Source: a virus. From it: a stretch of 40,776 nt of DNA. Within the stretch, counting starts at the first letter, position 1. Each line of letters opens with the position of its first letter. Made by a program: the position numbers and the translations under genes. Positions 7,138-20,183 of this stretch are shown in pieces. Under the pieces are notes generated by a model. That model was not told the origin of the DNA. It saw nothing but the letters and a program-made list of their open reading frames with translations, and ran no database searches. The stretch is from the UHGV virus genome UHGV-0210060; one strand, 5' to 3'.

Positions 7138-7437
7138 TCAGAATTCCATCTGGATTTGTTCAGAACGCTCGGTCTTGCACACCGGGCGTTTTTTATTGAT
7201 GAGTCCATCAAGCGCATACTTAAAAGCCCTGCTAATCGGACTGATGTCTGATGCCATTCCGAAAGCACACAAGACCGAAGCAATAAACCGCCAGTCGGTA
7301 CGACTGATCTTCGATTCATGACAGCCAATCATCTTTGCCAGACCGCGCTGGGTAAGCGTTGACAGGTTGATGAGTAAATCTGTTTCTGCGCGATCAACAT
7401 CGCGCTGTGATAGTTTGCTGTAACTTGTTTGTTCCAT
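7138..7437 (-). CDS. cII: CII-like transcriptional activator
   Basis: 99 aa; C-terminus [19 protein letters not shown] matches lambda CII ([19 protein letters not shown]); position between cro and replication genes. Confidence 0.8.
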
Positions 7438-7922: not shown

Positions 7923-8627
7923 ATGGAAAACAAAGATATTCGCAAGTCGAATCTGGCGTTTTTGCTAGATGAGCATAAAAAAATCGCGGGTAACACTAAT
8001 GCAAGCTTTGCCGATAAGCTTGGGGTTAGCCCTTCTCAACTCACGCAAGTCTCCGGTGAAAAAAGCACGCGAAACATAGGGGATAAACTAGCAAGAAAAT
8101 TTGAAGCCGCACTTGGGTTACCTAATGGGTGGCTTGATTTGGTACATGATGTAACACCAATTGCATCATGCTCAGATTCTTTAACTTTTGTCGGTCAGGT
8201 AAGAAAAGGGTTAGTGCGCGTGGTTGGTGAGGCAATTCTTGGTGTTGATGGTGCCATCGAGATGACCGAAGAGCGCGATGGGTGGCTCAAAATTTATAGC
8301 GATGATCCAGATGCCTTTGGTCTTCGTGTGAAAGGAGACAGCATGTGGCCCAGAATAAAATCAGGAGAATATGTGCTCATTGAGCCTAACACCAAAGTAT
8401 TCCCGGGTGATGAGGTGTTTGTCAGAACCATCGAAGGACACAACATGATCAAGATTCTTGGCTATGACAGAGATGGAGAATACCAGTTTACAAGCATCAA
8501 CCAGGACCACAGACCAATAACGTTGCCTTATCATCAAGTAGCAAAGGTGGAGTATGTGGCTGGTATTCTGAAGCAGTCACGCCATCTGGATGACATCGAG
8601 GCAAGGGAGTGGCTGAAAAGTTCGTGA
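7923..8627 (+). CDS. cI: CI-type repressor (HTH + S24 LexA-like autopeptidase domain)
   Basis: 234 aa; C-terminal GDSMWPRIKSGEYVLIEP ... GDEVFVRT ... MIKIL fits the S24 Ser/Lys fold; divergent from cro. Confidence 0.85.
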   Translation: MENKDIRKSNLAFLLDEHKKIAGNTNASFADKLGVSPSQLTQVSGEKSTRNIGDKLARKFEAALGLPNGWLDLVHDVTPIASCSDSLTFVGQVRKGLVRVVGEAILGVDGAIEMTEERDGWLKIYSDDPDAFGLRVKGDSMWPRIKSGEYVLIEPNTKVFPGDEVFVRTIEGHNMIKILGYDRDGEYQFTSINQDHRPITLPYHQVAKVEYVAGILKQSRHLDDIEAREWLKSS

Positions 8628-8744
8628 CTTTATCGTCACATAGCTGATAGCCAGTGGCCTGAAGAGACGTTTGGGTGATATATGTGAAATGCATATATTG
8701 ATATAAATGCAGCAATATCAATTAGTTAAAAGGTTATATTTTTA

Positions 8745-9125
8745 ATGAATGATCTTGATAAGAAAAAGTACGACCAAGTTATTGATTCTGTGAACTTCGC
8801 CCTTAGATCGTTGTCAGAGTTATTCGAAGCCCATGGAATGCATGGGATGTATGATCTAACGAATCCAAGCCTTGATGAGCTAAAATTAGTGTTTACAAGG
8901 ATGAAAAACGGTGTTGACTCTATTGCTCAAAGCTTTGAGCACATGGTAGAGACAGCAAAGGATATGGATGCCGCAAGTGCAAGCATAAATGTTATGAACA
9001 TCAAACAAGGATTGATGTATGCTGAATCACTATTGCTTGCTGTAGAGAAATTAGACTATGATAAATGTGTGGAAGCAAATACGCAGATAAAAACCCACGA
9101 TCTTCCACCAACCCAATGGCCTTAA
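8745..9125 (+). CDS. hypothetical protein (126 aa) in rex position downstream of cI
   Basis: AT-rich ORF; candidate promoter TTGGGT-17-TATATT at 8671..8699; no recognisable motif. Confidence 0.55.
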   Translation: MNDLDKKKYDQVIDSVNFALRSLSELFEAHGMHGMYDLTNPSLDELKLVFTRMKNGVDSIAQSFEHMVETAKDMDAASASINVMNIKQGLMYAESLLLAVEKLDYDKCVEANTQIKTHDLPPTQWP

Positions 9126-9194
9126 TAGTAAATCAAGATTTCATATAGTCTATTTGAACTAGGCTAGTACCATAAAATAAACCGAGGAAACGCA

Positions 9195-9296
9195 ATGAAA
9201 ACCATGTCCACTCTGCACAAAGATGCAATGACCCTGAGAGCTCTCATCAACGAGATTCTGGCTCGCTCGTCAGCACACACCAAAAAAGCCGCATAA
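9195..9296 (+). CDS. small ORF (33 aa) upstream of terminator
   Basis: Own translation MKTMSTLHKDAMTLRALINEILARSSAHTKKAA; preceded by GAGGAAA; followed 11 nt later by an intrinsic terminator. Confidence 0.3.
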   Translation: MKTMSTLHKDAMTLRALINEILARSSAHTKKAA

Positions 9297-9307
9297 TGCC
9301 TACATAA

Positions 9308-9333
9308 CCCGGCCTCAGCGCCGGGTTTTCTTT
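9308..9333 (+). terminator. intrinsic terminator ending the cI-side transcript (tIMM-like)
   Basis: CCCGGC-ctcagc-GCCGGG followed by TTTTCTTT. Confidence 0.7.
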
Positions 9334-9469
9334 GCCTAACGTCCCCCAAAAAACGCATAACCAATTGTATTTATTGAAAAATTGATAGATACAACTTGCT
9401 AAACCACGAAATTCTGATCTCCCTCAAATCTCTTTATTTATCCTGTCGAATTCCTGCAACAAAATAAAA

Positions 9470-9560
9470 CACCATAAAAATCAATATCATATTTGAAAAT
9501 CAAAAGAATTTATCATTTTGCTATTGTCATTAATTTATCATTCCGATAAAGTTTACCCAT
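9470..9560 (+). promoter_or_regulatory. OL / PL region
   Basis: aaTTTATCAttttgctattgtcattaaTTTATCAttccGATAAAgt: same half-sites as OR; candidate promoter TTGTCA-17-TAAAGT reading toward N. Confidence 0.5.
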
Positions 9561-9598
9561 CAGCAGGACGCTGGAAGCCAAACGGAACAGACTGGCAT

Positions 9599-9644
9599 GC
9601 TCTTTAAACAACGTCGAACACTCGACTACGTGGCTGAAAAGCCA
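9599..9644 (+). promoter_or_regulatory. nutL-like site (boxA + boxB hairpin with GAAA loop)
   Basis: GCTCTTTAAACAAC, GTCGAacacTCGAC hairpin, then TGGCT-GAAA-AGCCA; same three-part layout as the nutR candidate. Confidence 0.55.
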
Positions 9645-9667
9645 GCTCACCCAACCACATAAGCTGT

Positions 9668-9717
9668 GGGATGCAATGCCGAAGCAACCGCCTCAGGAGT
9701 AGCTTCGGGATTGCATC
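9668..9717 (+). other. long hairpin in the N leader (16-bp stem with one mismatch, 16-nt loop)
   Basis: GGGATGCAATGCCGAAGC ...16 nt... GCTTCGGGATTGCATC, ending 25 nt before the N start codon. Confidence 0.6.
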
Positions 9718-9742
9718 ACCAGAGTTTATTCGGGAGGAATCT

Positions 9743-10015
9743 ATGTCCAGAAAAACAGAATTTAAAGGCACCGCAGCTTCTCGCCGTAGAGCTCGTCGTG
9801 CAAATCTGCAAAGTCAGGAGGCGATCAGCTCCGACAAGCTACACAGGCCAACCCCTTCACGAGTGGTCTTGCAATGCAAGCGCAAACCAGCAATGAGAGC
9901 AGAAGTAATAACACTGACAACGTTGACCAGAAAATATGAAGGCTCAACTTGTCTTCCAAACGTAGCTATTTACGCGGCAGGCTACCGGAAATCAAAACAA
10001 CTGACGGCGAGGTAA
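9743..10015 (+). CDS. N: N-type antiterminator (arginine-rich motif)
   Basis: GGGAGG RBS; MSRKTEFKGTAASRRRARRANLQ arginine-rich N-terminus; C-terminus AIYAAGYRKSKQLTAR resembles P22 gp24 (ALYAAGHRKSKQITAR). Confidence 0.8.
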   Translation: MSRKTEFKGTAASRRRARRANLQSQEAISSDKLHRPTPSRVVLQCKRKPAMRAEVITLTTLTRKYEGSTCLPNVAIYAAGYRKSKQLTAR

Positions 10016-10017
10016 TT

Positions 10018-10380
10018 ATGGGTCAGGAAGAAAAATATGAGCTTAAAAAGCTCATTGAAGAAGACGCCATAGAAGAAATTGCAGCATTAACAACAGCTAT
10101 AAAGAATATTAGGTATGCGCTAAATACGCTTATCTCCTCATGCGACAAAAATAGCAGGGAATTTTTGATACTTGGAGCAGCTCTAGGAATAGTTGATGCG
10201 GCAACGCTTCACCTAATTACTCATGACGATATTCTTATTGAGCCGTATGAAACATTACTGCTTGTCAGGCAAAAAATGGCTGATGCCGCAGCAAATGGAG
10301 ACCTTCAACTTTACATCGACTTAAGGAAAGTATTAAGGCGAATGGTCAGAACTGAAGGAGATATCCCCCTGACAAAATAA
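10018..10380 (+). CDS. hypothetical protein (120 aa)
   Basis: ORF from ATG 10018 directly after N; predicted soluble; no motif recognised. Confidence 0.5.
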   Translation: MGQEEKYELKKLIEEDAIEEIAALTTAIKNIRYALNTLISSCDKNSREFLILGAALGIVDAATLHLITHDDILIEPYETLLLVRQKMADAAANGDLQLYIDLRKVLRRMVRTEGDIPLTK

Positions 10381-10570
10381 GGGGGTGAGAGGATTTTACT
10401 ATTTTTCTCGCTGTAGGGGTACACGAGAACCACCGAGCCTGATGTGGTTAAAAGACAGGCATACGAATAAACACTGCACTGTGTATTCATTCCAACGAGT
10501 GAATACACGGAGCAATGTCGCTCGTAACTAAACAGGAGCCGACTTGTTCTGATTATTGGAAATCTTCTTT

Positions 10571-10594
10571 GCCCTCCAGTGTGAGGGCTTTTTT
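10571..10594 (+). terminator. intrinsic terminator (tL1-like) preceded by a 9-bp-stem hairpin
   Basis: GCCCTC-cagtgt-GAGGGC + TTTTTT; upstream hairpin GTGTATTCA...TGAATACAC at 10479..10507. Confidence 0.7.
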
Positions 10595-10660
10595 ATATGC
10601 ATACCAATAACGCTTCACTCGAGGCGTTTTCGTTATGCAATCAAACAGAAGGAGCATCCT

Positions 10661-10831
10661 ATGCAACAGTTCGCTATTGCAGGGGCGGCATCGGTTCGCC
10701 CTTTCAACCCGATTTTATCGGTACAGCATTCACGAAAAAATATTTTAACCGGAGCAGACTTTAAACAACCAAGAATGAAAAGTTTGCTCGAAAAGCTTTG
10801 GGATATTTTGAAACAACAAGGCCGTCCATGA
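10661..10831 (+). CDS. cIII: CIII-like protein (FtsH inhibitor family)
   Basis: From ATG 10661 (RBS AAGGAG): MQQFAIAGAAS...KSLLEKLWDILKQQGRP compares to lambda CIII MQYAIAG...ESLLERI...KRLIDILNQPG. Confidence 0.65.
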   Translation: MQQFAIAGAASVRPFNPILSVQHSRKNILTGADFKQPRMKSLLEKLWDILKQQGRP

Positions 10832-10986
10832 ATTTTACAGATAACTGGTCAGACGAAGAATTCATTCGTCAGATGAAAGAATTAATCGGTAACGAAGGAG
10901 ATATTCATGTCACTTGCAACCACAGTGAAGGAGAGCAAGTTACAGAGACGCATGTACACGCAGAAAGCTCTCTGGTATCGCCATAA
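10828..10986 (+). CDS. small ORF (52 aa); Kil-like by position only
   Basis: ATG overlaps cIII stop (ATGA); acidic small protein; function not readable from sequence. Confidence 0.35.
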   Translation: MNFTDNWSDEEFIRQMKELIGNEGDIHVTCNHSEGEQVTETHVHAESSLVSP

Positions 10987-11085
10987 TGGCGACCGCGAAG
11001 GAATGCGGGTATGCCTTAATTTGTCCCGAGTCGAAGTATTAAATCAGCGTTATTTCCTTGGGCCGTGTCCATTCTGAGGTGAATT

Positions 11086-11793
11086 ATGGATTTGAACAAA
11101 TTCGATGAGCCATTCAGCCCTGAAGATATCGAATGGCGAATACAGCAAAGCGGTAAAACACGCGATGGCAAGGTGTGGGCTATGGTGCTGGCTTATGTCA
11201 CGAACCGGGCAATCATGAAGCGCCTGGACGATGTTTGCGGCAAAGCAGGATGGCGCAATGAATACCGCGATATTCCCAACAACGGCGGAGTTGAATGCGG
11301 CATATCAATCAAGATTGATTCCGAATGGGTAACCAAATGGGATGCTGCTGAAAACACGCAGGTAGAAGCCGTCAAAGGCGGTCGTTCCGGTGCAATGAAG
11401 CGCGCTGCCGTTCAGTGGGGAATCGGTCGGTATCTGTATAACCTTGAGGAAGGTTTTGCACAAACATCTCTCGATAAAAAGCAGGGATGGCACAGGGCAA
11501 AACTCAAGGATGGAACAGGATTTTACTGGCTCCCTCCATCGCTGCCGGGATGGGCAATCCCAGCATCAGATAACAAACCATCACCAGAAAATACCAACCA
11601 GAAATCTCCATCGGTTGACTGCGAACAAATCCTGAAAGACTTCAGCGATTATGCGTCAACAGAAACTGACAAGAAAAAACTCATCGAGCGTTATCAGCGT
11701 GACTGGCAATTAATGGCTGGCAACGAGGAGGCGCAGGCTAAATGCGTTCAGGTAATGAACATCAGAGTTAACGAACTAAAACAGGCGGCATAA
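11086..11793 (+). CDS. Rad52-like single-strand annealing protein (Sak type)
   Basis: Pattern DIEWR...G...GKVWAMVLAYVTNRAIMKRLDDVCGKAGWRNEY ... MKRAAVQWGIGRYLYN fits the Rad52/22 N-terminal fold signature; precedes ssb. Confidence 0.65.
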   Translation: MDLNKFDEPFSPEDIEWRIQQSGKTRDGKVWAMVLAYVTNRAIMKRLDDVCGKAGWRNEYRDIPNNGGVECGISIKIDSEWVTKWDAAENTQVEAVKGGRSGAMKRAAVQWGIGRYLYNLEEGFAQTSLDKKQGWHRAKLKDGTGFYWLPPSLPGWAIPASDNKPSPENTNQKSPSVDCEQILKDFSDYASTETDKKKLIERYQRDWQLMAGNEEAQAKCVQVMNIRVNELKQAA

Positions 11794-12309
11794 ATGGCAA
11801 GCAGAGGCGTAAATAAGGTGATCATTATTGGTCGCCTTGGGCATGATCCAGAAATCAGATATTCACCATCAGGAACGGCATTTGCAAACCTTACCGTTGC
11901 TACGTCAGAACAATGGCGTGATAAGAAAACTGGAGAGCAAAAGGAGCAGACGGAGTGGCACCGCGTGGTAATGAGCGGGAAACTGGCAGAAATTGCCAGC
12001 GAATATCTGCGAAAAGGCTCTGAGGTTTATCTTGAAGGCAAATTGCGGACAAGAAAATGGCAGGATCAAAGCGGACAGGATCGGTTCACTACCGAAGTCA
12101 TCGTGGGCGTTGGTGGAACCATGCAAATGCTTGGTGGCAAGCAAGGAGGCAATGAACAGTCTTCACCTCAGCGAAATAATGGTCAGCAACAAAGACAGCA
12201 ACCTCAGCAGCAGGGAAATCACAGCGAACCACCTATGGATTTTGACGACGATATCCCCTTTGCACCAGTAACTCTCCCCTTCCCTCGTCACGCTATTCAC
12301 GCAATTTAA
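11794..12309 (+). CDS. ssb: single-stranded DNA-binding protein with C-terminal extension
   Basis: OB-fold N-terminus ([41 protein letters not shown]...TEWHRVV), Gln/Gly-rich linker, MDFDDDIPF, then 15 extra residues [15 protein letters not shown]. Confidence 0.9.
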
Positions 12310-12317
12310 GGACTTAC

Positions 12318-12866
12318 ATGAATCACTTGATGGTTGACCTTGAAACAATGGGCAACGGGCCATACGCGCCAGTTATTTCTATTGGGGCGGTATTCTTTGA
12401 CCCGAATACCGGAGAAACAGGAGAAGAGTTCTCGGTAAATATCTCGCTTGAATCATCAATGCGATATCGAGCGCGTCCTGACGCTTCAACGATTTTATGG
12501 TGGCTGGAACAGAGTGAAGAAGCCAGAAAATCGCTAACCAGCAACACTCAGGAGCTTTCAACGGCTCTTTCATGGTTATCTGAATTCATCATAAAGAACG
12601 CTAACCACAAATTCGTTCAGGTTTGGGGGAATGGAGCATCATTTGACTGCGTTATTCTCCGAAACAGTTATTCGCTGACAGGGCAGCCAGTTCCATGGCA
12701 GTGGTGGAATGACCGCGACGTAAGAACAATCGTCGAGCTTGGAAAGGTAATAGGATTCAACCCTAAGCGAGATATGCCATTCAAAGGAACTCGCCACAAC
12801 GCGCTTGATGATGCCATCCACCAAGCCAAATACGTTTCAGCGATCTGGAAAAAGTTAGCTAAATAA
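12318..12866 (+). CDS. DEDDh 3'-5' exonuclease (DnaQ-like)
   Basis: Exo I DLETMG, Exo II NGASFDC, Exo III HNALDDA in canonical order. Confidence 0.75.
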   Translation: MNHLMVDLETMGNGPYAPVISIGAVFFDPNTGETGEEFSVNISLESSMRYRARPDASTILWWLEQSEEARKSLTSNTQELSTALSWLSEFIIKNANHKFVQVWGNGASFDCVILRNSYSLTGQPVPWQWWNDRDVRTIVELGKVIGFNPKRDMPFKGTRHNALDDAIHQAKYVSAIWKKLAK

Positions 12867-12882
12867 TCAACAGGAGAAAAAC

Positions 12883-13179
12883 ATGCCAGCGCCTTTGTAT
12901 GGTGCGGATGACGCGCGCCGCTGTTCCGGCAATTCCGTATCGGAGGTGCTGGATAAATTCAGGAAAAACTACGACCGGATAATGTCGCTACCGCAGGAAA
13001 CGAAAGAGGAAAAGGAGTTTCGCCACTGCATATGGCTTGCAGAGAAAGAAGAACGCGATCGAATTTACCAGACATCAATCCGACCATTCCGCAAAGCCAC
13101 ATATACCCACTTCCCTGAATATATCGACCCGCGCCTGCGTAATTACCGCTCACGCTATGGCGCTATCAGTAATGACTGA
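12883..13179 (+). CDS. hypothetical protein (98 aa)
   Basis: Co-oriented ORF in early-left operon; no motif recognised. Confidence 0.5.
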
Positions 13180-13354
13180 GGAATTTACCATGAGAGGACT
13201 TGCATACAATCCCAGCATTCTTCCGGCAGAAATGATTATTCGCCAACGCGTAAAGCCAATGCCATCGAGAGAGGAATTGCTTAAGAGAAAGAGTTTCGGT
13301 TCTGTTAATGACAACAAATATCTGAATGCGATGTGGCGGAGTGGGAAGAAATGA
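13172..13354 (+). CDS. hypothetical small protein (60 aa)
   Basis: ORF overlapping both neighbours' ends; start 13172 or 13190. Confidence 0.35.
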
Positions 13355-13827
13355 AACAAATGTCACTAATTGAGATGGATGGTTTTCTGAAAGGTAAATG
13401 CATCCCACGAGATTTAAAGGTTAACGAAACAAACGCTGAATATCTGGTGCGTAAGTTCGGTGAGCTTGAATCAAAACTGGAAACGGCGTTGCGGGAGTGT
13501 CGTTCTGCTGGAATCACGATTGATAACCTTGAGGCTAAATGCGCGAAGATGGCTGCAGAAAATACCTCGCTTAAGCAATCTGAGAAGGAATTTAATGACT
13601 TTTGTCGTGAGGAGTTTAGCGAATGGGAAGATGATGTTACTGAAACCCCAGCCACCGACACTTTCCTGGATGAAGTGCGGGCGCAGGCGTTTAATGACCT
13701 TTGCTCGGCGTTCGTTAAACACGCGAATCTCGCGGGAATGGATGATGGTGAGCTAGTGAGGCTTAAATATGCGACGGACGCCCTGCTGCATTGTGCAGAC
13801 CAACTTCGCAAGGGAGTGCATTCATGA
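13351..13827 (+). CDS. hypothetical protein (~158 aa)
   Basis: ATG 13351 overlaps previous stop; acidic, predicted helical. Confidence 0.5.
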
Positions 13828-14057
13828 GCAACCTACTACCATGTCCATTCTGTGGCGGCGCAGCGCACGTTGCCAGCGAAGCGGATCACCCTGAATATGG
13901 CTCTGGCGGTCGATTCTATTTCGTTCGATGCGGTACGTGTCGCGCTCAATCTGGTAGCAAATATGCAGCGCCTGGAAATGACTGCGCGATTTTTTATTCA
14001 GAGGTTAGAGCAGAGTGGAATCAGCGAGCAAAGGAGGCAAACAGTGAGCAAGATTGA
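13824..14057 (+). CDS. lar: Lar-family restriction-alleviation protein
   Basis: [12 protein letters not shown]...VRCGTCRAQSG: small Cys4 protein with the CPFCG signature of Lar-family proteins. Confidence 0.7.
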   Translation: MSNLLPCPFCGGAAHVASEADHPEYGSGGRFYFVRCGTCRAQSGSKYAAPGNDCAIFYSEVRAEWNQRAKEANSEQD

Positions 14058-14895
14058 CTATCAGGCACTGCGTGAAAAGGCAGAGAAAGCAACGTGTGGT
14101 GTATGGTCGCTCGAATATGGAGAGGGACGATTTGATGGTGATGATGCACTAATTCATCGCGAGGTTTCTGGATATATTCCTATTTGCAGAATTGAAGGAG
14201 CGCATCCAGAAAGCGGTTTCGATGAAGATTTCCAAATGGAACAGCAGGCCAACGCTGAATTCATCGCCGCAGCCAATCCGGCTACCGTCTTGGCGCTGCT
14301 GGATGAACGGGAAAGAAACCAGCAATACATCAAACGCCGCGACCAGGAGAACGAGGATATTGCGCTAACGGTAGGGAAGCTGCGTGTTGATCTGGAAGCA
14401 GCAAAAAAGCGCATAGCAGAACTGGAAGCCGACCCCGTAAGCCAAACTTACAACTTGCCAGAATTAATCGAGGGCATGGAAGTTTCCATTGATGTAAGCA
14501 CTTGTGATGCTGATTTAGGTAATCGCTATTTCGGCACCGTCACCGAGGCGTTAGAACTTGATACAGCCAAGAATGGTTACATCCTCCTGGTTCAGGACGC
14601 AGAGCCAAACTTCGATGTAAATGGCAACTCTCCGGTAACTCCGGATGGTTGGGTCATGGTGCCGAAGAGACTAACAGCCGAGAACGGCGCTAAGGGTGCG
14701 CTATCCGGTGAATTTTCAGAAACTACGTTTATCAGCTGCCCGGAATGCTTTGGCGATGATGATTGCGATACCTGTGACGGTAGCGGGCGGATTGAAATTA
14801 AAGTACCAGTCACATGGACGACCATAAAATCCATCTGGGATAAAGGTATTGCGTATTTTGCAGCAGAACCGCCGCAGGAGGTTAACCTTGGCTAA
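14044..14895 (+). CDS. Ea22-like protein
   Basis: GTG start after AGGAGG; N-terminus MSKIDYQALREKAEKATCGVWSLEYG typical of lambdoid Ea22-like proteins; upstream part of the listed ORF overlaps lar in another frame. Confidence 0.6.
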   Translation: MSKIDYQALREKAEKATCGVWSLEYGEGRFDGDDALIHREVSGYIPICRIEGAHPESGFDEDFQMEQQANAEFIAAANPATVLALLDERERNQQYIKRRDQENEDIALTVGKLRVDLEAAKKRIAELEADPVSQTYNLPELIEGMEVSIDVSTCDADLGNRYFGTVTEALELDTAKNGYILLVQDAEPNFDVNGNSPVTPDGWVMVPKRLTAENGAKGALSGEFSETTFISCPECFGDDDCDTCDGSGRIEIKVPVTWTTIKSIWDKGIAYFAAEPPQEVNLG

Positions 14896-15172
14896 CCTAC
14901 AACTTGCCGTTAAAGGTGAATACTTCGATGCCATGATTCGCAGAGAGAAAACGGAAGAGTATCGCCTGTGTAATGACTACTGGAATAAGCGAATTATGTT
15001 CCGGGAGTATGATCGCCTGATTATCACAAAGGGATATCCGAAGCGCGACGATTCCAGCCGTAGAATTGATGTTCCGTATGACGGATATGAAATCAAGACA
15101 ATCACACATCCGCACTTCGGCGATAAACCGGTAAAGGTGTTCGCGATAAAGGTGAATATCGGCAATGAATAA
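14888..15172 (+). CDS. hypothetical protein (~94 aa; start uncertain, possibly TTG)
   Basis: Open frame overlapping the Ea22-like stop; no ATG near the 5' end. Confidence 0.4.
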   Translation: MANLQLAVKGEYFDAMIRREKTEEYRLCNDYWNKRIMFREYDRLIITKGYPKRDDSSRRIDVPYDGYEIKTITHPHFGDKPVKVFAIKVNIGNE

Positions 15173-15231
15173 CAATCCTCGAACTCGCGGGGATTTCTTT
15201 TATCTGAACTCGCTACGGCGAGTTTTGTTTT

Positions 15232-15543
15232 ATGGAGATGATTATGGCCTGTTCAACATTCAACCATCTAACGTTACAGAAATACCAGCCAGACCCTGAA
15301 GATTTATGCTCACTGTGTGGCGGAAATCATGGTAAAGCCGCCATGATCGAATGTAAGGACAAAATCCACATTTGCCTTAATTGCGTTGATGTCCTCGTTG
15401 ATATCAAAAATGAGAGAGAAGATAAAAAGCGTAGCGAGGCTATTCGCGCATTAGATTCATGGATGCGAGATGGGTATAGTGCTGCGCAAATTTATGACTT
15501 CGCAATATCAAAAGGCGAAATACCAGGAGTGCGCATCGAATAA
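15232..15543 (+). CDS. hypothetical Cys-rich protein (103 aa)
   Basis: CSLCGG...CLNC cysteine pairs suggest a zinc ribbon; followed by a terminator. Confidence 0.55.
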   Translation: MEMIMACSTFNHLTLQKYQPDPEDLCSLCGGNHGKAAMIECKDKIHICLNCVDVLVDIKNEREDKKRSEAIRALDSWMRDGYSAAQIYDFAISKGEIPGVRIE

Positions 15544-15633: not shown

Positions 15634-15852
15634 ATGTACTTGACACTTCAGGAGTGGAACGCACGCCAGCGACGCCCAAGAAGCCTTGAAACAGTTCGTC
15701 GATGGGTACGCGAGTGCAGGATATTCCCTCCTCCGGTTAAGGATGGAAGAGAGTATCTGTTCCACGAATCAGCGGTAAAGGTTGACTTAAATCGACCAGT
15801 AACAGGTAGCCTTTTGAAGAGGATCAAAAATGGGAAGAAGGCGAAGTCATGA
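15634..15852 (+). CDS. xis: excisionase Xis (lambda type)
   Basis: MYLTLQEWNARQRRPRSLETVRRWVRECRIFPPPVKDGREYLFHESAVKVDLNRP... is essentially lambda Xis. Confidence 0.95.
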   Translation: MYLTLQEWNARQRRPRSLETVRRWVRECRIFPPPVKDGREYLFHESAVKVDLNRPVTGSLLKRIKNGKKAKS

Positions 15853-16900
15853 GCGCCGGGATTTACCCCCTAATCTTTATATAAGAAACAATGGATATTA
15901 CTGCTACAGGGACCCAAGGACGGGTAAAGAGTTTGGATTAGGCCGAGACAGGAGGATAGCAATCACTGAAGCTATACAGGCCAACATTGAGTTATTTTCA
16001 GGACACAAACACAAGCCTCTGACAGCGAGAATCAACAGTGATAATTCTGTTACGTTACATTCATGGCTTGATCGCTACGAAAAAATCCTCGCCAACAGAG
16101 GAATCAAGCAGAAGACACTCATAAATTACATGAGCAAAATTAAAGCAATAAGGAGGGGGCTGCCTGATGCTCCACTTGAAGACATCACCACAAAAGAAAT
16201 TGCAGCAATGCTCAATGGATACATAGACGAGGGCAAGGCGGCGTCAGCCAAGTTAATCAGATCAACACTGAGCGATGCATTCCGAGAGGCAATAGCTGAA
16301 GGCCATATAACAACAAACCCGGTCACTGCCACTCGCGCAGCAAAATCAGAGGTAAGGAGATCAAGACTTACGGCTGACGAATACCTGAAAATTTATCAAG
16401 CAGCAGAATCATCACCATGTTGGCTTAGACTTGCAATGGAACTGGCTGTTGTTACCGGGCAGCGTGTTGGGGATTTATGCGAAATGAAGTGGTCTGATAT
16501 CGTAGATGGCTATCTTTATGTCGAGCAAAGCAAAACCGGCGTAAAAATTGCCATCCCAACAACATTGCATGTTGATGCTCTTGGGATATCAATGAAGGAA
16601 ACACTTGATAAATGCAAAGAGATTCTTGGCGGAGAAACCATAATTGCATCTACTCGTCGTGAACCGCTTTCATCCGGCACAGTATCAAGGTATTTTATGC
16701 GCGCACGAAAAGCATCAGGTCTTTCCTTCGAAGGGGATCCGCCTACCTTTCACGAGTTGCGCAGTTTGTCTGCAAGACTCTATGAGAAGCAGATAAGCGA
16801 TAAGTTTGCTCAACATCTTCTCGGGCATAAGTCGGACACCATGGCATCACAGTATCGTGATGACAGAGGCAGGGAGTGGGACAAAATTGAAATCAAATAA
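15830..16900 (+). CDS. int: integrase Int (lambda-type tyrosine recombinase)
   Basis: 356 aa; MGRRRSHERRDLPPNLYIRNNGYYCYRDPRTGKEFGLGRD... near-identical to lambda Int along its length; overlaps xis. Confidence 0.95.
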   Translation: MGRRRSHERRDLPPNLYIRNNGYYCYRDPRTGKEFGLGRDRRIAITEAIQANIELFSGHKHKPLTARINSDNSVTLHSWLDRYEKILANRGIKQKTLINYMSKIKAIRRGLPDAPLEDITTKEIAAMLNGYIDEGKAASAKLIRSTLSDAFREAIAEGHITTNPVTATRAAKSEVRRSRLTADEYLKIYQAAESSPCWLRLAMELAVVTGQRVGDLCEMKWSDIVDGYLYVEQSKTGVKIAIPTTLHVDALGISMKETLDKCKEILGGETIIASTRREPLSSGTVSRYFMRARKASGLSFEGDPPTFHELRSLSARLYEKQISDKFAQHLLGHKSDTMASQYRDDRGREWDKIEIK

Positions 16901-17477: not shown

Positions 17478-20183
17478 CTACATTGCCATTAATATAAACA
17501 TAGCCAATTCGTCATAACGAATTCCGTAGCGTCCTCCTGCTTTTTTTACAAGAATCATATCTCCTGTTTTATATTGAGAATAAATTTTCTCACCTGTATC
17601 AGGATCTGTGCTCTCTTCAGTTATCACCTCTTCATCCCATACGTCAGGCCATTCATCGTAACACCAAAAAGCATATTGCTCAGGGTTTAAACCATGCTTT
17701 CTAAGAATATCCCCTACGGTTTGAGCGCCAACGCCAAAATGATACCTGGACGACTCAATTCCTTTGTTATTAATTGAGTCATTAAATTTAAATTTATAGA
17801 TGACTGACTTTATTTCAATAGCGGCATCACGCTCTGCATTAAGAATATCATATCTTGTTTTAAGAGTTTCATCTGATGTATTGATTGACCCGGTTCCTGC
17901 ATAAATAACAGAGCATCTGTTTGATGGCTGTCCAATGGCTTTAACATTATCATCAACAGGAGCTATTTTATTAGCATCTGCCAACCACCAGTCTGTTCCA
18001 TCAGCGTGACCGATTCTTACTCTTATCCCACTTCTAATATTTAAACTTCCAGTATTACTCTGTAAATTACAATCTCCTGACGTTGGTCCAAGCAGTACAG
18101 TTTTACCAACACCACATACTACTCTGGCATTTCCTTTTTGTGATACGAGTCTTGACTCACCTCCTGACTGCTCAGGAAGAGATTTATGGTCTATAAATGC
18201 ATCGCGGGGGTTAAATACACCGTCTCCGGAATTATATCTTCCTCCTGTATAGTTGTTAAATACAGGACCCCAGTCAACGCCATTGCCTTCAGAGCACCCG
18301 ACCATTCTAAGCACTCGAGTATTCCCTGCTGCATATGGTAATGAGCTTGTTGATTGCCGGGAAGCTATCATACGTGCTCCATAACCAATAGCATTACCAC
18401 CATTTATAGTTACATATGCTTGCTGGCTTTCGAAATATGTACTGTAAAAGTTCATATTTCCACAGTCATGTAGATGAATAAGAACATCATCCCATCCCTG
18501 AATGGTTCCTGCATGTACCTGTACACCGCGAACTGGTTCCCCTGAAACCTCCATACACTCTGATGGTCGGCTGAATGGTTGAGACAGGTATTGCGATGTG
18601 GCAAGCAGATGTGTGTGGTGATACAGGCTGGTAATGTAGCAATCGAAAAATTGCGTTCCCGCCATACCAAAGTTATCTATGTCATTTCGCCGTATAGTAG
18701 AACCTACTGTTGCCTCAGAAGCGTTAGACACTCCAGTAAATACTAACTTATCACCGGATACGGATAATCCTGAATAAGTGAAATTCCTGCCTCCAGATCT
18801 TAAAACCCCGGACGTTTCGAAGGTGTGGCTTGCTGACCATGGTATTTCGATAGTGCTGGACGTTACCGCTGTAATTCGGAATACATCATGGGCGCGGATC
18901 GAAATACCCTTGAATCCTTGGAATCTACAGTGATAATAGTTTTCATCCTCGCCCTGAGCGGCCAGCGTGCCAGATACAGGAATGTTCGTTTTTAAAAGTG
19001 CCGTCTTGCGCCAGTATCCAACCACCTGCAAATTGCGGTATTCATTGCCAAAAGACGCACGTGACCAAATACCTACATCCCACTCATCGCCAAGACCGGT
19101 ATTTGCAATGTCTTTATAACCATCCAGCCCATTGAAATATGGAACAACACGAAAGTTCTCAAGGCGAACACATCCTGTCTCAGGCATCAATATTGCGGCA
19201 GAGAATGGTTTAAGCGTGGCTCTTGTAGTCCCATTAGCATCACCGTTAGTAAAATCCAATAAATCATATGATGACGCAGGTGCCGTTGTTGTATACGGGT
19301 CTTCGGAAGATGGGTTAGAAACCACACCACCACTAACATCCATATTAGAAACACAATCTACAGTATATTTTTTATTTCCTACCCCGTACATCAGGAATGT
19401 GGTCCCTGTGGTAATATCAGGAGCAAATGTTGCAGTATATCCTGAGACCCATTTGCCCACACCAAGACAAATTATCCCACCACCAGAAACAGGTGTTAAC
19501 GTATCCGTTATTACATACGCATTATCAGTACCATAAATAACCTTTCCTGTGTTAAGGGCAGCTTGCCACGCGGCCCAGTCTATTGACTGAGATAATGAGT
19601 CAACAAAAGGATATAAGGATTTTGCTTCAGAAATTGAAGAAAACCACTCAGATAATGGATGATATTTCCCATCCCCAATTGCTCCAAATTGTTTTACATT
19701 TAAGAAAAGAGCATTGTTTTCATGCTGAGTTATAGTTGCAGCCCCGGTAAATGGCTGCCTTACCCCAATTAATGCATCACCTTTTGAATCATCATTAATG
19801 TATGCTCCTGATTGAGATAACTGCTCTTTGAAGTCTGGGCCAAACTGATCTGGATCGTATTTTAATACATTTGGAAAATAAAACTGCTGAGTGCCATAAG
19901 CATCGTAAACAGCCATAGAATGGCCTTGCACGGTAACGAATTTGGCAATCTGTCCGTTATATACCGGATAACCAGCAGCGTTAATGATGATGGGTTGCGA
20001 AACAGGAGCGTGAGAACCGTCTTCGTTCTCCACATAAACCTGAATCTGGTTTTCAGGATTTACCGGGTCAGTGTCAATTTTACCGATATAAATTTTGCCA
20101 TTGGCTACGGCTTTAAAAGAACGAGCCATAGTGAAGAGTTGCGAAGGCATGCTTACCACAACATTGGCTGTAATGTCTGTCAT
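17478..20183 (-). CDS. tailspike (P22-type head-binding domain, beta-helix domain, C-terminal intramolecular chaperone)
   Basis: 901 aa; N-terminal ~110 aa match the P22 gp9 head-binding domain ([45 protein letters not shown] ... [12 protein letters not shown] ... NVLKYDPDQ); [10 protein letters not shown] glycosidase-like start; [11 protein letters not shown] near the C-terminus. Confidence 0.85.

Follow-up and report, generated by a model that had tools for sequence, protein, structure and literature searches.

The window analysed here (the whole 40,776-nt stretch of viral DNA) carries a recombination module with genes for a chimeric annealase, a phage single-stranded DNA-binding protein (SSB), a DEDDh exonuclease and the RecBCD-hijacking protein Abc2. 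The core of this module is probably formed by annealase, SSB and Abc2, with resection by RecBCD together with Abc2, and the exonuclease would represent a facultative cassette and not the resection nuclease.

Organization of the module and its operon context

The genes of the module, the small ORF preceding it and the landmarks of its surroundings are as follows:

10798..10986, + strand: small ORF (62 aa) 5' of the annealase gene, matching PHROG 2123 ("recombinase", HK97 gp42-like; E 8e-41)
11086..11793, + strand: chimeric annealase (235 aa), Pfam PF04098 plus C-terminal domain of P22 Erf
11794..12309, + strand: phage SSB (171 aa), Pfam PF00436, E. coli type
12318..12866, + strand: DexA/Rv2179c-family DEDDh exonuclease of predicted 3'-5' polarity (182 aa), Pfam PF16473
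12883..13179, + strand: Abc2 anti-RecBCD (RecBCD-hijacking) protein (98 aa), Pfam PF11043
7923-8627: CI repressor (operon context)
cIII gene (operon context)
15830-16900: integrase (operon context)
17478-20183: tailspike (operon context)

A preliminary description had named three back-to-back ORFs on the + strand, the coordinates of which are exact (11086-11793, 11794-12309 and 12318-12866), and their assignment to a Rad52/Sak-type annealing core, an SSB and a DEDDh exonuclease of the 3'-5' type agrees with strong Pfam matches in profile searches. The fourth gene of the block, abc2, is absent from that description; it starts 16 nt past the exonuclease stop codon, and its product matches Pfam PF11043 with E 1.2e-60 and is 91% identical to Abc2 of P22. 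Since abc2 is located directly downstream in this phage, the contrast formerly drawn with the erf-abc arrangement of P22 is wrong.

Judged from the operon context, the module (11086-13179) is reasonably likely to be the recombination block in the early-left (pL) operon of a temperate podovirus or prophage of the P22 type. The genes from annealase to abc2 are tightly spaced and form a single pL transcription unit; no + strand terminator was found between 10628 and 15174 and no convincing promoter inside the module, where a single weak promoter-like match (9/12) lies within ssb. Promoter-like sites in the module region are fewer (8) than expected from shuffled sequences (18.3). Among the pL-operon ORFs at 7923-15543 scanned with Pfam and PHROGs, the DEDDh enzyme is the sole nuclease, and no 5'-3' dsDNA exonuclease (YqaJ/lambda Exo or RecE) was found.

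The arf-erf-abc1-abc2 block of P22 occupies the same pL position and presumably works by the same mechanism. The module of the window differs from it by (i) an annealase core of the Pfam Rad52_Rad22 type instead of ERF, (ii) the lack of Abc1 and Arf, neither of which gave a tblastn match in the window, and (iii) the presence of an SSB and an optional exonuclease, such that the position of Abc1 is filled by SSB with or without the exonuclease. The small ORF at 10798..10986 holds the place of P22 arf upstream of the annealase gene, as do like small ORFs in mEp235, Sf6 and HK75; whether it is part of the recombination module is uncertain. Its identification as P22 Arf was rejected, the similarity being limited to a 7-residue SDEEFI match (E 0.017).

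Neither the module nor its "unusual" nuclease and Erf domain swap are new. The 2008 genome paper of phage epsilon34 described the same four genes and the domain swap, and referred to the nuclease as "unusual in this context" (PMC2629481). The same gene order with 85-98% nucleotide identity is present in epsilon34 (genes 36-33), g341c, mEp235, mEpX2 and a prophage of E. coli W, and annotations of the module exist for many phages and for RefSeq prophages. There is no essential difference from the epsilon34-type block, of which the window holds an allelic variant; its annealase, SSB and exonuclease are each found letter for letter in public databases, where their clusters comprise about 1000-1500 members.

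Annealase and SSB

The annealase consists of a Rad52-type core joined to the C-terminal domain of P22 Erf:

Residues 4-136 (nt 11095-11493): Rad52_Rad22-type core, followed by a disordered linker
Residues 157-235 (nt 11554-11790): Erf-type C-terminal three-helix bundle

Residues 4-136 match positions 7-153 of the 153 positions of the Pfam Rad52_Rad22 model (PF04098; E 5e-26; 91.9 bits, cut-off 20.3), and this domain is carried by all 120 annealase homologues listed. The Pfam ERF model (PF04404), with which P22 Erf itself scores 157 bits, has no match in the annealase at E <= 0.01, and a tblastn search of the window with the P22 Erf core yielded nothing. The BLASTP alignment of the two proteins is confined to their C-terminal domains, i.e., residues 157-235 of the annealase and 134-205 of P22 Erf (63% identity, E 2e-30). 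Membership of the first protein in the Erf family, considered before as a counter-argument to its Rad52 assignment, is accordingly excluded for the core and correct for the C-terminal ~80 residues. The "Erf-like" labels found in PHROGs and GenBank are in conflict with the Rad52 assignment because the protein ends in an Erf C-terminal domain, and the chimera of Rad52 core and Erf tail reconciles these contradictory database labels. The C-terminal domain is a putative partner-binding domain.

A relation of the annealase to RAD52 and Mgm101 emerged by means of structure prediction and Foldseek, whereas PDB searches at the sequence level, using either the protein itself or a profile of 43 sequences, returned noise (PRP40 WW domain, uL18; E 0.1-0.8). 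The AF2 model (mean pLDDT 82.4) displays a core at about residues 1-150, a segment of pLDDT <50 at 162-175 and helices at 179-234. With this model, the top 16 Foldseek matches in the PDB are all yeast Mgm101 or human RAD52, with E-values of 1.6e-3 to 6e-2 and probabilities of up to 1.0, but TM-scores of just 0.2-0.45. A Rad52 N-terminal fold of the annealase is proposed with moderate confidence on the basis of this model.

The SSB possesses an OB fold and matches Pfam PF00436 (E 3.7e-38, 130 bits) as well as TIGR00621 (183 bits, cut-off 54). Its acidic motif DDDIPF (within ...DFDDDIPF) is located at residues 151-156 and is followed by a 15-residue extension (nt 12262-12306), such that the acidic tip, the protein-interaction hub of bacterial-type SSBs, does not form the very C-terminus; the TIGR00621/NCBIfam SSB models stop at residue 156. 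Of 80 related loci, 59 share this extension, and the last 45 nt of ssb match the 3' end of the HNH gene gp26 of Sf6 without a difference.

Properties and distribution of the exonuclease

Over its full length, the exonuclease matches Pfam PF16473 (Rv2179c-like; E 2.6e-73; 245.9 bits, cut-off 27), a family named after an exoribonuclease, Rv2179c, which by this name would act on RNA. It shares the DEDDh fold family with T4 DexA (exonuclease A; PDB 8KEL/8KEN), with 31% identity (E 2e-19; E 9e-14 against PDB 8KEL), and has kept all catalytic residues: D7, E9, D110, H160 and D165 align with D7, E9, D119, H186 and D191 of DexA and do not vary in 110-111 of the 111 homologues. The equivalent of DexA W152 (W130) is conserved in 87 of these 111. 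In contrast to DexA (227 aa), the enzyme of the window (182 aa) has neither the extra loops nor an equivalent of the tetramerisation residue D90, and the phage encoding it is temperate and has unmodified DNA. D152 (RDM motif) is aligned to DexA D169 by BLASTP, but not by MAFFT. The earlier designation "DnaQ-like" applies at the superfamily level but not beyond, the score with Pfam RNase_T (20.6 bits) being below the cut-off of 24; 3'-5' polarity would be expected from the superfamily. DexA and its E. coli homologue EcD act on DNA (PMC12153337).

The dN/dS ratio of the exonuclease gene relative to phage epsilon34 (0.11) resembles those of the neighbouring genes for the annealase (0.14) and Abc2 (0.13), and the exonuclease is therefore a maintained gene.

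The exonuclease cassette is placed between the stop codon of ssb and the ribosome-binding site of abc2. The occupancy of this slot was compared in the best-scoring 80 of ~440 IMG/VR contigs, all with an annealase ~100% identical to that of the window; in this set, which is rich in related E. coli/Salmonella prophages and does not provide phylogenetically independent counts, the slot is empty in 37 loci and contains the exonuclease in 24, an HNH gene in 16 and both in 3. SSB and Abc2 are encoded in 80/80 of these loci and the exonuclease in 27/80; annealase, SSB and Abc2 therefore constitute the invariant core. Both SSB alleles are found in combination with the exonuclease. With just about one in three of these otherwise identical modules carrying it, the exonuclease is an unlikely candidate for the recombination nuclease. 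A second set, anchored on Abc2 (best-scoring 80 of >570 contigs) and composed of similarly related prophages with non-independent counts, includes 28 loci combining a Rad52 core with the Erf C-terminal domain, Abc1 and Abc2, but without SSB and exonuclease. In two further loci of this set (L149 and L198), the exonuclease gene is located 3' of abc2; in the Sak4-type contig L198, the homologue lies ~1 kb downstream, outside of the module.

Within modules, the exonuclease gene is nearly always placed directly 3' of ssb and is essentially missing from Abc1-type modules devoid of SSB. This adjacency could reflect a real functional link rather than hitch-hiking. Among 5426 complete E. coli genomes, the gene is found in 173, the Rad52 annealase core in 397 and abc2 in 1101. 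Relatives of the exonuclease without a nearby annealase are encoded in a P2-like early operon, in a helicase/primase region, in prophages with the order DUF2303-ParB-DndB...exo-xis-int and in early regions of RdgC-type, Sak4-type and other prophages. The domain also forms the C-terminus of an 823-aa protein of mEp460/CP-933P, adjoining xis/int. This fusion was considered as a link to recombination and found uninformative, as no annealase is nearby; its N-terminal part contains no Pfam domain and carries just PHROG "exonuclease" labels.

Proposed function of the module and possible roles of the exonuclease

An Abc2 hijack model of RecBCD has been proposed, and phages with Abc2 were remarked to have no exonuclease of their own (PMC9836394; PMC5928155). 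Following the P22 literature, Abc2 of the window would bind the RecC subunit of the host RecBCD enzyme, which would then go on unwinding and degrade the 5' strand, sparing the phage DNA. The phage SSB may coat the 3' ssDNA made by RecBCD, and the annealase may pair this strand with complementary ssDNA in terminal redundancies during circularisation, at replication forks or in other phage DNA; loading of the annealase by Abc2 is still a hypothesis in the literature (PMC9836394). In this division of labour, which we infer for the module of the window, the exonuclease would be a horizontally shuffled cassette between ssb and abc2, co-transcribed and under purifying selection where present. Like its relative T4 DexA, the exonuclease most likely trims 3' ends in ssDNA or at DNA ends. 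Its role is most likely an accessory one, either in the processing of 3' ends and flaps or in the removal of ssDNA that arises in the DNA metabolism of the phage.

Alternatively, the exonuclease, possibly in conjunction with the tip-masked SSB, may be a device of phage conflict (HREX-like exclusion or counter-defence) and not a recombination enzyme, a reading that we regard as unlikely. Its exclusion form, considered distinctly unlikely, holds that the gene product degrades the 5hmC DNA of superinfecting T-even phages in the manner claimed for EcD, which is reported to shield E. coli against T4 when plasmid-borne and to digest 5hmC DNA (PMC12153337). As members of one family, the two enzymes share the catalytic residues and the W152 equivalent as well as the lack of D90, features which the EcD study, together with an equivalent of D169, applied as criteria. 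Phage conflict genes typically take the form of such optional, shuffled cassettes in accessory slots. Moreover, EcD could be traced from the published primers to an early gene of a P2-like prophage. The EcD family is not represented among the top 120 exonuclease homologues and was recovered via a 17-mer of the 5' primer; the 3' primer as exact 23-mer, which departs from the natural sequence by one base, yielded 0 matches. However, the exonuclease of the window is just 37% identical to EcD, whose gene resides beside those for a Dam methylase and gpA in the P2-like early operon and not in a recombination module, and the two alignment programs disagree on an equivalent of DexA D169. The gene is furthermore part of the repressed pL operon and has no promoter of its own, and should therefore be silent in the lysogen. 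PADLOC returned no significant match to a defence model, but a weak generic DEDDh match (E 2e-4), and the published evidence for EcD rests on plasmid expression. In both cases examined (the present module and the EcD locus), the member of the DexA-like family, recently promoted as a "bacterial" anti-T4 defence, is encoded by an early gene of a phage, which bears on the reading of the published claim.

In its other form, the conflict reading assigns the exonuclease to counter-defence or ssDNA housekeeping, i.e., to the removal of ssDNA/cDNA or the replacement of host ExoI, with nucleotide scavenging as a variant; we consider this very improbable. The host ssDNA metabolism monitored by retron, DRT and Abi systems would be perturbed by SSB, annealase and Abc2, and the exonuclease could clear the ssDNA/cDNA signals or take the place of ExoI, thereby blunting the systems by which the host senses phage SSBs, annealases or tampering with RecBCD. 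The location of its gene directly after the phage ssb is in favour of such a role. SbcB of the host is a 3'-5' ssDNA exonuclease. Its joint control of DRT10 activation with phage SSB-like proteins bearing C-terminal tip motifs (bioRxiv 10.64898/2026.04.29.721553) points in the same direction. Scavenging of host DNA is documented for T4 DexA besides 3' processing during intron homing (PMC12153337). Expression of the gene, as part of the pL operon, is early lytic. On the other hand, the proposal is purely inferential, and not all members of the exonuclease family are associated with ssb.

It appears equally remote that the exonuclease is a dedicated partner of the annealase, as in a lambda Exo/Bet-like pair of reversed (3'-5') polarity that generates 5' overhangs for annealing. 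Such a partnership, which the preliminary description had put forward, is suggested by the adjacent, tightly spaced and co-transcribed genes, the intact active site under purifying selection, the linkage to ssb inside these modules and the contribution of T4 DexA to intron homing, which depends on recombination (PMC12153337), but it is contradicted by the lack of the exonuclease in 53/80 modules with identical annealase, while Abc2 is missing in none, and by the widespread occurrence of its family outside of recombination modules and without an annealase. In addition, Abc2 already supplies a resection route via RecBCD, and the C-terminal domain of the annealase is common to P22 Erf, which works without such a nuclease.

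Resection by RecBCD with Abc2, as preferred here, sets the module apart from lambda Red and RecET. These likewise comprise a pL-encoded phage annealase of the Rad52 superfamily acting on resected DNA, whereas the module of the window has neither a YqaJ/RecE-type exonuclease nor a Gam-type inhibitor and would co-opt RecBCD via Abc2; its own phage nuclease is, as predicted from the sequence, of opposite polarity and dispensable for the module architecture. Natural variants with and without the exonuclease on otherwise identical backgrounds offer a ready-made comparison for the role of this nuclease. As for recombineering, the functional unit to be used is annealase plus SSB (with or without Abc2) and not annealase plus exonuclease. 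The same architecture of annealase, cognate SSB and Abc2 is found in the hkaM-sak4-ssb-abc2 system of HK620, where the annealase is Sak4 (core-only RecA) and the SSB of the DUF669 type, and where oligo recombineering is stimulated by SSB but not by Abc2 (PMC5928155).

Gene content and transcriptional setting of the module

The window is the genome of a P22-like temperate podovirus, or prophage, with the portal and major head genes located farther along. The three ORFs named in the preliminary description were recovered at exactly its coordinates, and Pfam profiles assigned all of them cleanly, confirming the protein identifications; a fourth gene, encoding Abc2, had been overlooked.

Features of the recombination module and its surroundings
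7138-7437, - strand: cII-like gene
7923-8627: CI-type repressor
11086-11793, + strand: annealase (Rad52_Rad22, E 5e-26, 91.9 bits vs a cut-off of 20.3)
11794-12309, + strand: SSB (Pfam SSB, E 3.7e-38)
12318-12866, + strand: exonuclease (Rv2179c-like 3'-5' exonuclease, E 2.6e-73, full length)
12883-13179, + strand: Abc2 (98 aa), starting 16 bases past the exonuclease stop
15830-16900: integrase
17478-20183, - strand: tailspike

Abc2 belongs to the P22 anti-RecBCD protein family (PF11043, E 1.2e-60) and shares 91 % identity with the P22 protein. The early-left operon runs on the + strand downstream of the CI-type repressor, beginning with a cIII homologue (within 10556-10831) followed by small ORFs. 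From the terminator-like hairpins at 10571-10628 to those at 15174-15225, neither a + strand terminator nor a convincing promoter was found (one 9/12 match, inside ssb), promoter-like sites being fewer than in shuffles of this region; therefore, annealase, ssb, exonuclease and abc2 form one transcription unit. The two tandem hairpins at 10571-10628 lie 5' of, or overlap, the start of the cIII-like ORF, resembling the tL terminators that are annotated at the corresponding position of HK75 and Sf6. Thus, the recombination genes would depend on antitermination.

Annotated copies of this four-gene block exist in mEp235, mEpX2, epsilon34, g341c and an E. coli W prophage, and public databases contain exact matches to annealase, SSB and exonuclease (in clusters of roughly 1000-1500 members). 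All four genes had been listed in the 2008 epsilon34 paper, which described the nuclease as "unusual in this context" and also accounted for the Erf label (PMC2629481). The module is therefore already known.

Domain structure of the annealase

The annealase is a chimera of a Rad52-type core and a P22 Erf-type tail. Over its N-terminal 136 residues it matches Rad52_Rad22 rather than Pfam ERF, such that the earlier label "Rad52/Sak-like" holds for the annealing core, whereas P22 Erf has an N-terminal core that scores 157 bits against ERF. BLASTP against P22 Erf (E 2e-30) aligns the C-termini only, residues 157-235 being 63 % identical to Erf residues 134-205. In an AlphaFold2 model (43 homologues as input; mean pLDDT 82.4), the beta-rich core extends to about residue 150 and is connected by a disordered linker (162-175) to a three-helix bundle (179-234). 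Searched against the PDB with Foldseek, this model has yeast Mgm101 or human RAD52 as each of its top 16 matches (E 1.6e-3 to 6e-2), with modest TM-scores. The swapped tail explains why PHROGs and GenBank use "Erf-like" labels; this swap was already known. P22 Erf carries the same type of C-terminal domain, in a system that has no DEDDh nuclease; the domain is a candidate contact for a partner that the two systems share (Abc2-RecBCD or an SSB).

A WW-domain-like segment (GWHRAKLKDGTGFYWLPPSLPGWAIP; window 11470-11577, annealase residues ~129-164) matches the WW domain of yeast PRP40 weakly (E 0.1-0.5). In the model it forms a beta-hairpin (E136-139, E145-149) between the Pfam Rad52 domain and the linker, and W148, P151, W156 and P159 are invariant across the 43 homologues.

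Gene content between ssb and abc2

Related loci were compared in two sets, one anchored on the annealase (the best 80 of 440 IMG/VR contigs encoding a relative, these 80 having an essentially identical protein) and one on P22 Abc2 (70 usable loci among the best-scoring). In all 80 loci of the former, ssb and then abc2 follow the annealase. The slot between them is empty in 37/80 (17 nt from ssb stop to abc2 start), and contains the exonuclease in 24, an HNH endonuclease in 16 and both in three loci. Loci with the exonuclease include both SSB alleles (~70 % and ~99 % identity) and several abc2 alleles, i.e., the exonuclease assorts independently.

Among the 70 Abc2-anchored loci, 28 combine a Rad52 core with an Erf tail, Abc1 and Abc2 but lack SSB and exonuclease, 23 have the window's arrangement, and in seven the annealase core is truly Erf. 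HK620-like Sak4 modules account for two loci (one with an exonuclease homologue ~1 kb downstream of abc2), one carries the exonuclease downstream of abc2, and one has exonuclease and abc2 without annealase. Of 5426 complete E. coli genomes, 173 contain the exonuclease gene, 397 the Rad52 core and 1101 abc2. Hence the pairing of annealase and 3'-5' exonuclease emphasized in the preliminary description is unsupported: annealase, SSB and Abc2 constitute the invariant core, with the exonuclease as a facultative cassette. The sole regularity is its position, nearly always right behind ssb within these modules. The natural variants with and without exonuclease make its role easy to test.

In viral contig L123 (2937-3794), the exonuclease directly precedes abc2, with neither annealase nor SSB and ~700 nt without a long ORF upstream; this may represent a decayed module.

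The acidic DDDIPF tip of the window's SSB is followed by 15 extra residues (157-171; window 12262-12306), and such a masked tip occurs in 59/80 of the annealase-anchored loci (best 80 of 440). The final 45 nt of ssb match the 3' end of the Sf6 HNH gene gp26 (L002 4780-5297) exactly, and SSBs of HNH-containing loci end canonically (...DSDIPF*). Accordingly, either an HNH homing-endonuclease gene inserted into a longer ssb directly past its IPF codon, or deletion of the HNH gene fused SSB to its tail. As the free C-terminal tip of E. coli SSB is the partner-binding site, the extension could change the host proteins engaged. A second, unrelated HNH endonuclease gene (155 aa, motif HKCDNPCCVNPEHL; L046 4709-5176) lies exactly between annealase stop and ssb start in 9/80 loci of the same best-80-of-440 set (L046, L057, L059, L064, L065, L077, L079, L099, L103). 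Therefore, the module has three independent optional inserts (two HNH genes and the exonuclease), and appears to be a hotspot for the traffic of selfish genes.

Function and relatives of the exonuclease

The closest solved relative of the exonuclease is a 227-aa "Exodeoxyribonuclease" (PDB 8KEL/8KEN), i.e., T4 DexA (31 % identity to the T4 dexA product, E 2e-19). D7, E9, D110, H160 and D165 are equivalent to all listed DexA catalytic residues and are invariant in 110-111 of 111 aligned family members. The dN/dS ratio of the exonuclease gene versus its epsilon34 orthologue (0.11) is similar to those of annealase (0.14) and abc2 (0.13). Residue conservation and comparable constraint indicate that the exonuclease is very probably active; we infer 3'-5' polarity from the DEDDh superfamily.

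In P22, Abc2 binds RecC, and a hijack of RecBCD has been proposed in which host resection delivers ssDNA to the phage recombinase (PMC9836394). In the HK620 module, oligonucleotide recombineering by the annealase is stimulated by the cognate SSB, not by Abc2 (PMC5928155). Homology makes it most likely that the window's module operates in the same manner: RecBCD-Abc2 would resect DNA, SSB would coat the resulting ssDNA and the Rad52-core annealase would anneal it. By analogy with DexA, documented in scavenging of host DNA and in 3'-5' processing during intron homing (PMC12153337), the exonuclease would probably trim 3' ends or degrade ssDNA; its role would most likely be accessory DNA-end processing.

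All told, a conflict-related role appears rather improbable. It is conceivable because other prophage DEDDh exonucleases were proposed as anti-RNA-phage defences (PMC13344964), and one reverse-transcriptase defence system is controlled jointly by host ExoI and a phage SSB-like protein (bioRxiv 10.64898/2026.04.29.721553). Moreover, EcD, a DexA homologue of E. coli, is reported to digest 5hmC DNA and, when plasmid-expressed, to protect against T4 (2025, PMC12153337). The window exonuclease conforms in part to the sequence criteria of that study: it retains the catalytic residues and a W152 equivalent and lacks D90, the D169 equivalent being ambiguous. However, the gene lies within the repressed pL operon and lacks its own promoter, which argues against defence in the lysogen, and PADLOC returned no real match.

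The EcD family, recovered via the cloning primers in the supplement of PMC12153337, starts with MIDTET..., has Ala78 as reported and 189 aa, and agrees with the reverse primer at its 3' end but for one base; it shares 37 % identity with the window exonuclease. Its setting is the early operon of a P2-like prophage (Cox ... exo - Dam ... gpA - integrase). The gene was observed on contigs of viruses or prophages (L028 6401-6970, - strand; also L007, L012, L022, L023, L025), between a small ORF and the Dam methylase and upstream of gpA, with Cox and an integrase nearby. The word prophage does not occur in PMC12153337, where EcD is presented as 'bacterial'.

By tblastn, relatives of the exonuclease were found in 1859 phage records, and the contexts of this wider family are unrelated to annealases.

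Genomic contexts of exonuclease relatives
T4: dexA
P2-like early operon: adjoining Dam and gpA
Klebsiella and Salmonella prophages: DUF2303-ParB-DndB...exo-xis-int
Proteus phage Isfahan: flanked by helicase and primase
Yersinia and Providencia phages: near RdgC-like genes
mEp460 (L032 1578-4049): C-terminal domain of an 823-aa protein by xis/int

The mEp460 protein, product of a CP-933P-type prophage gene, is widely annotated as 'exodeoxyribonuclease VIII'. This RecE-style annotation looks wrong, since the gene lies between dicB and xis/int and neither RecT nor another annealase is encoded nearby. Its N-terminal ~560 residues contain no Pfam domain, and residues 642-813 constitute a DexA-like DEDDh domain 58 % identical to the window exonuclease.
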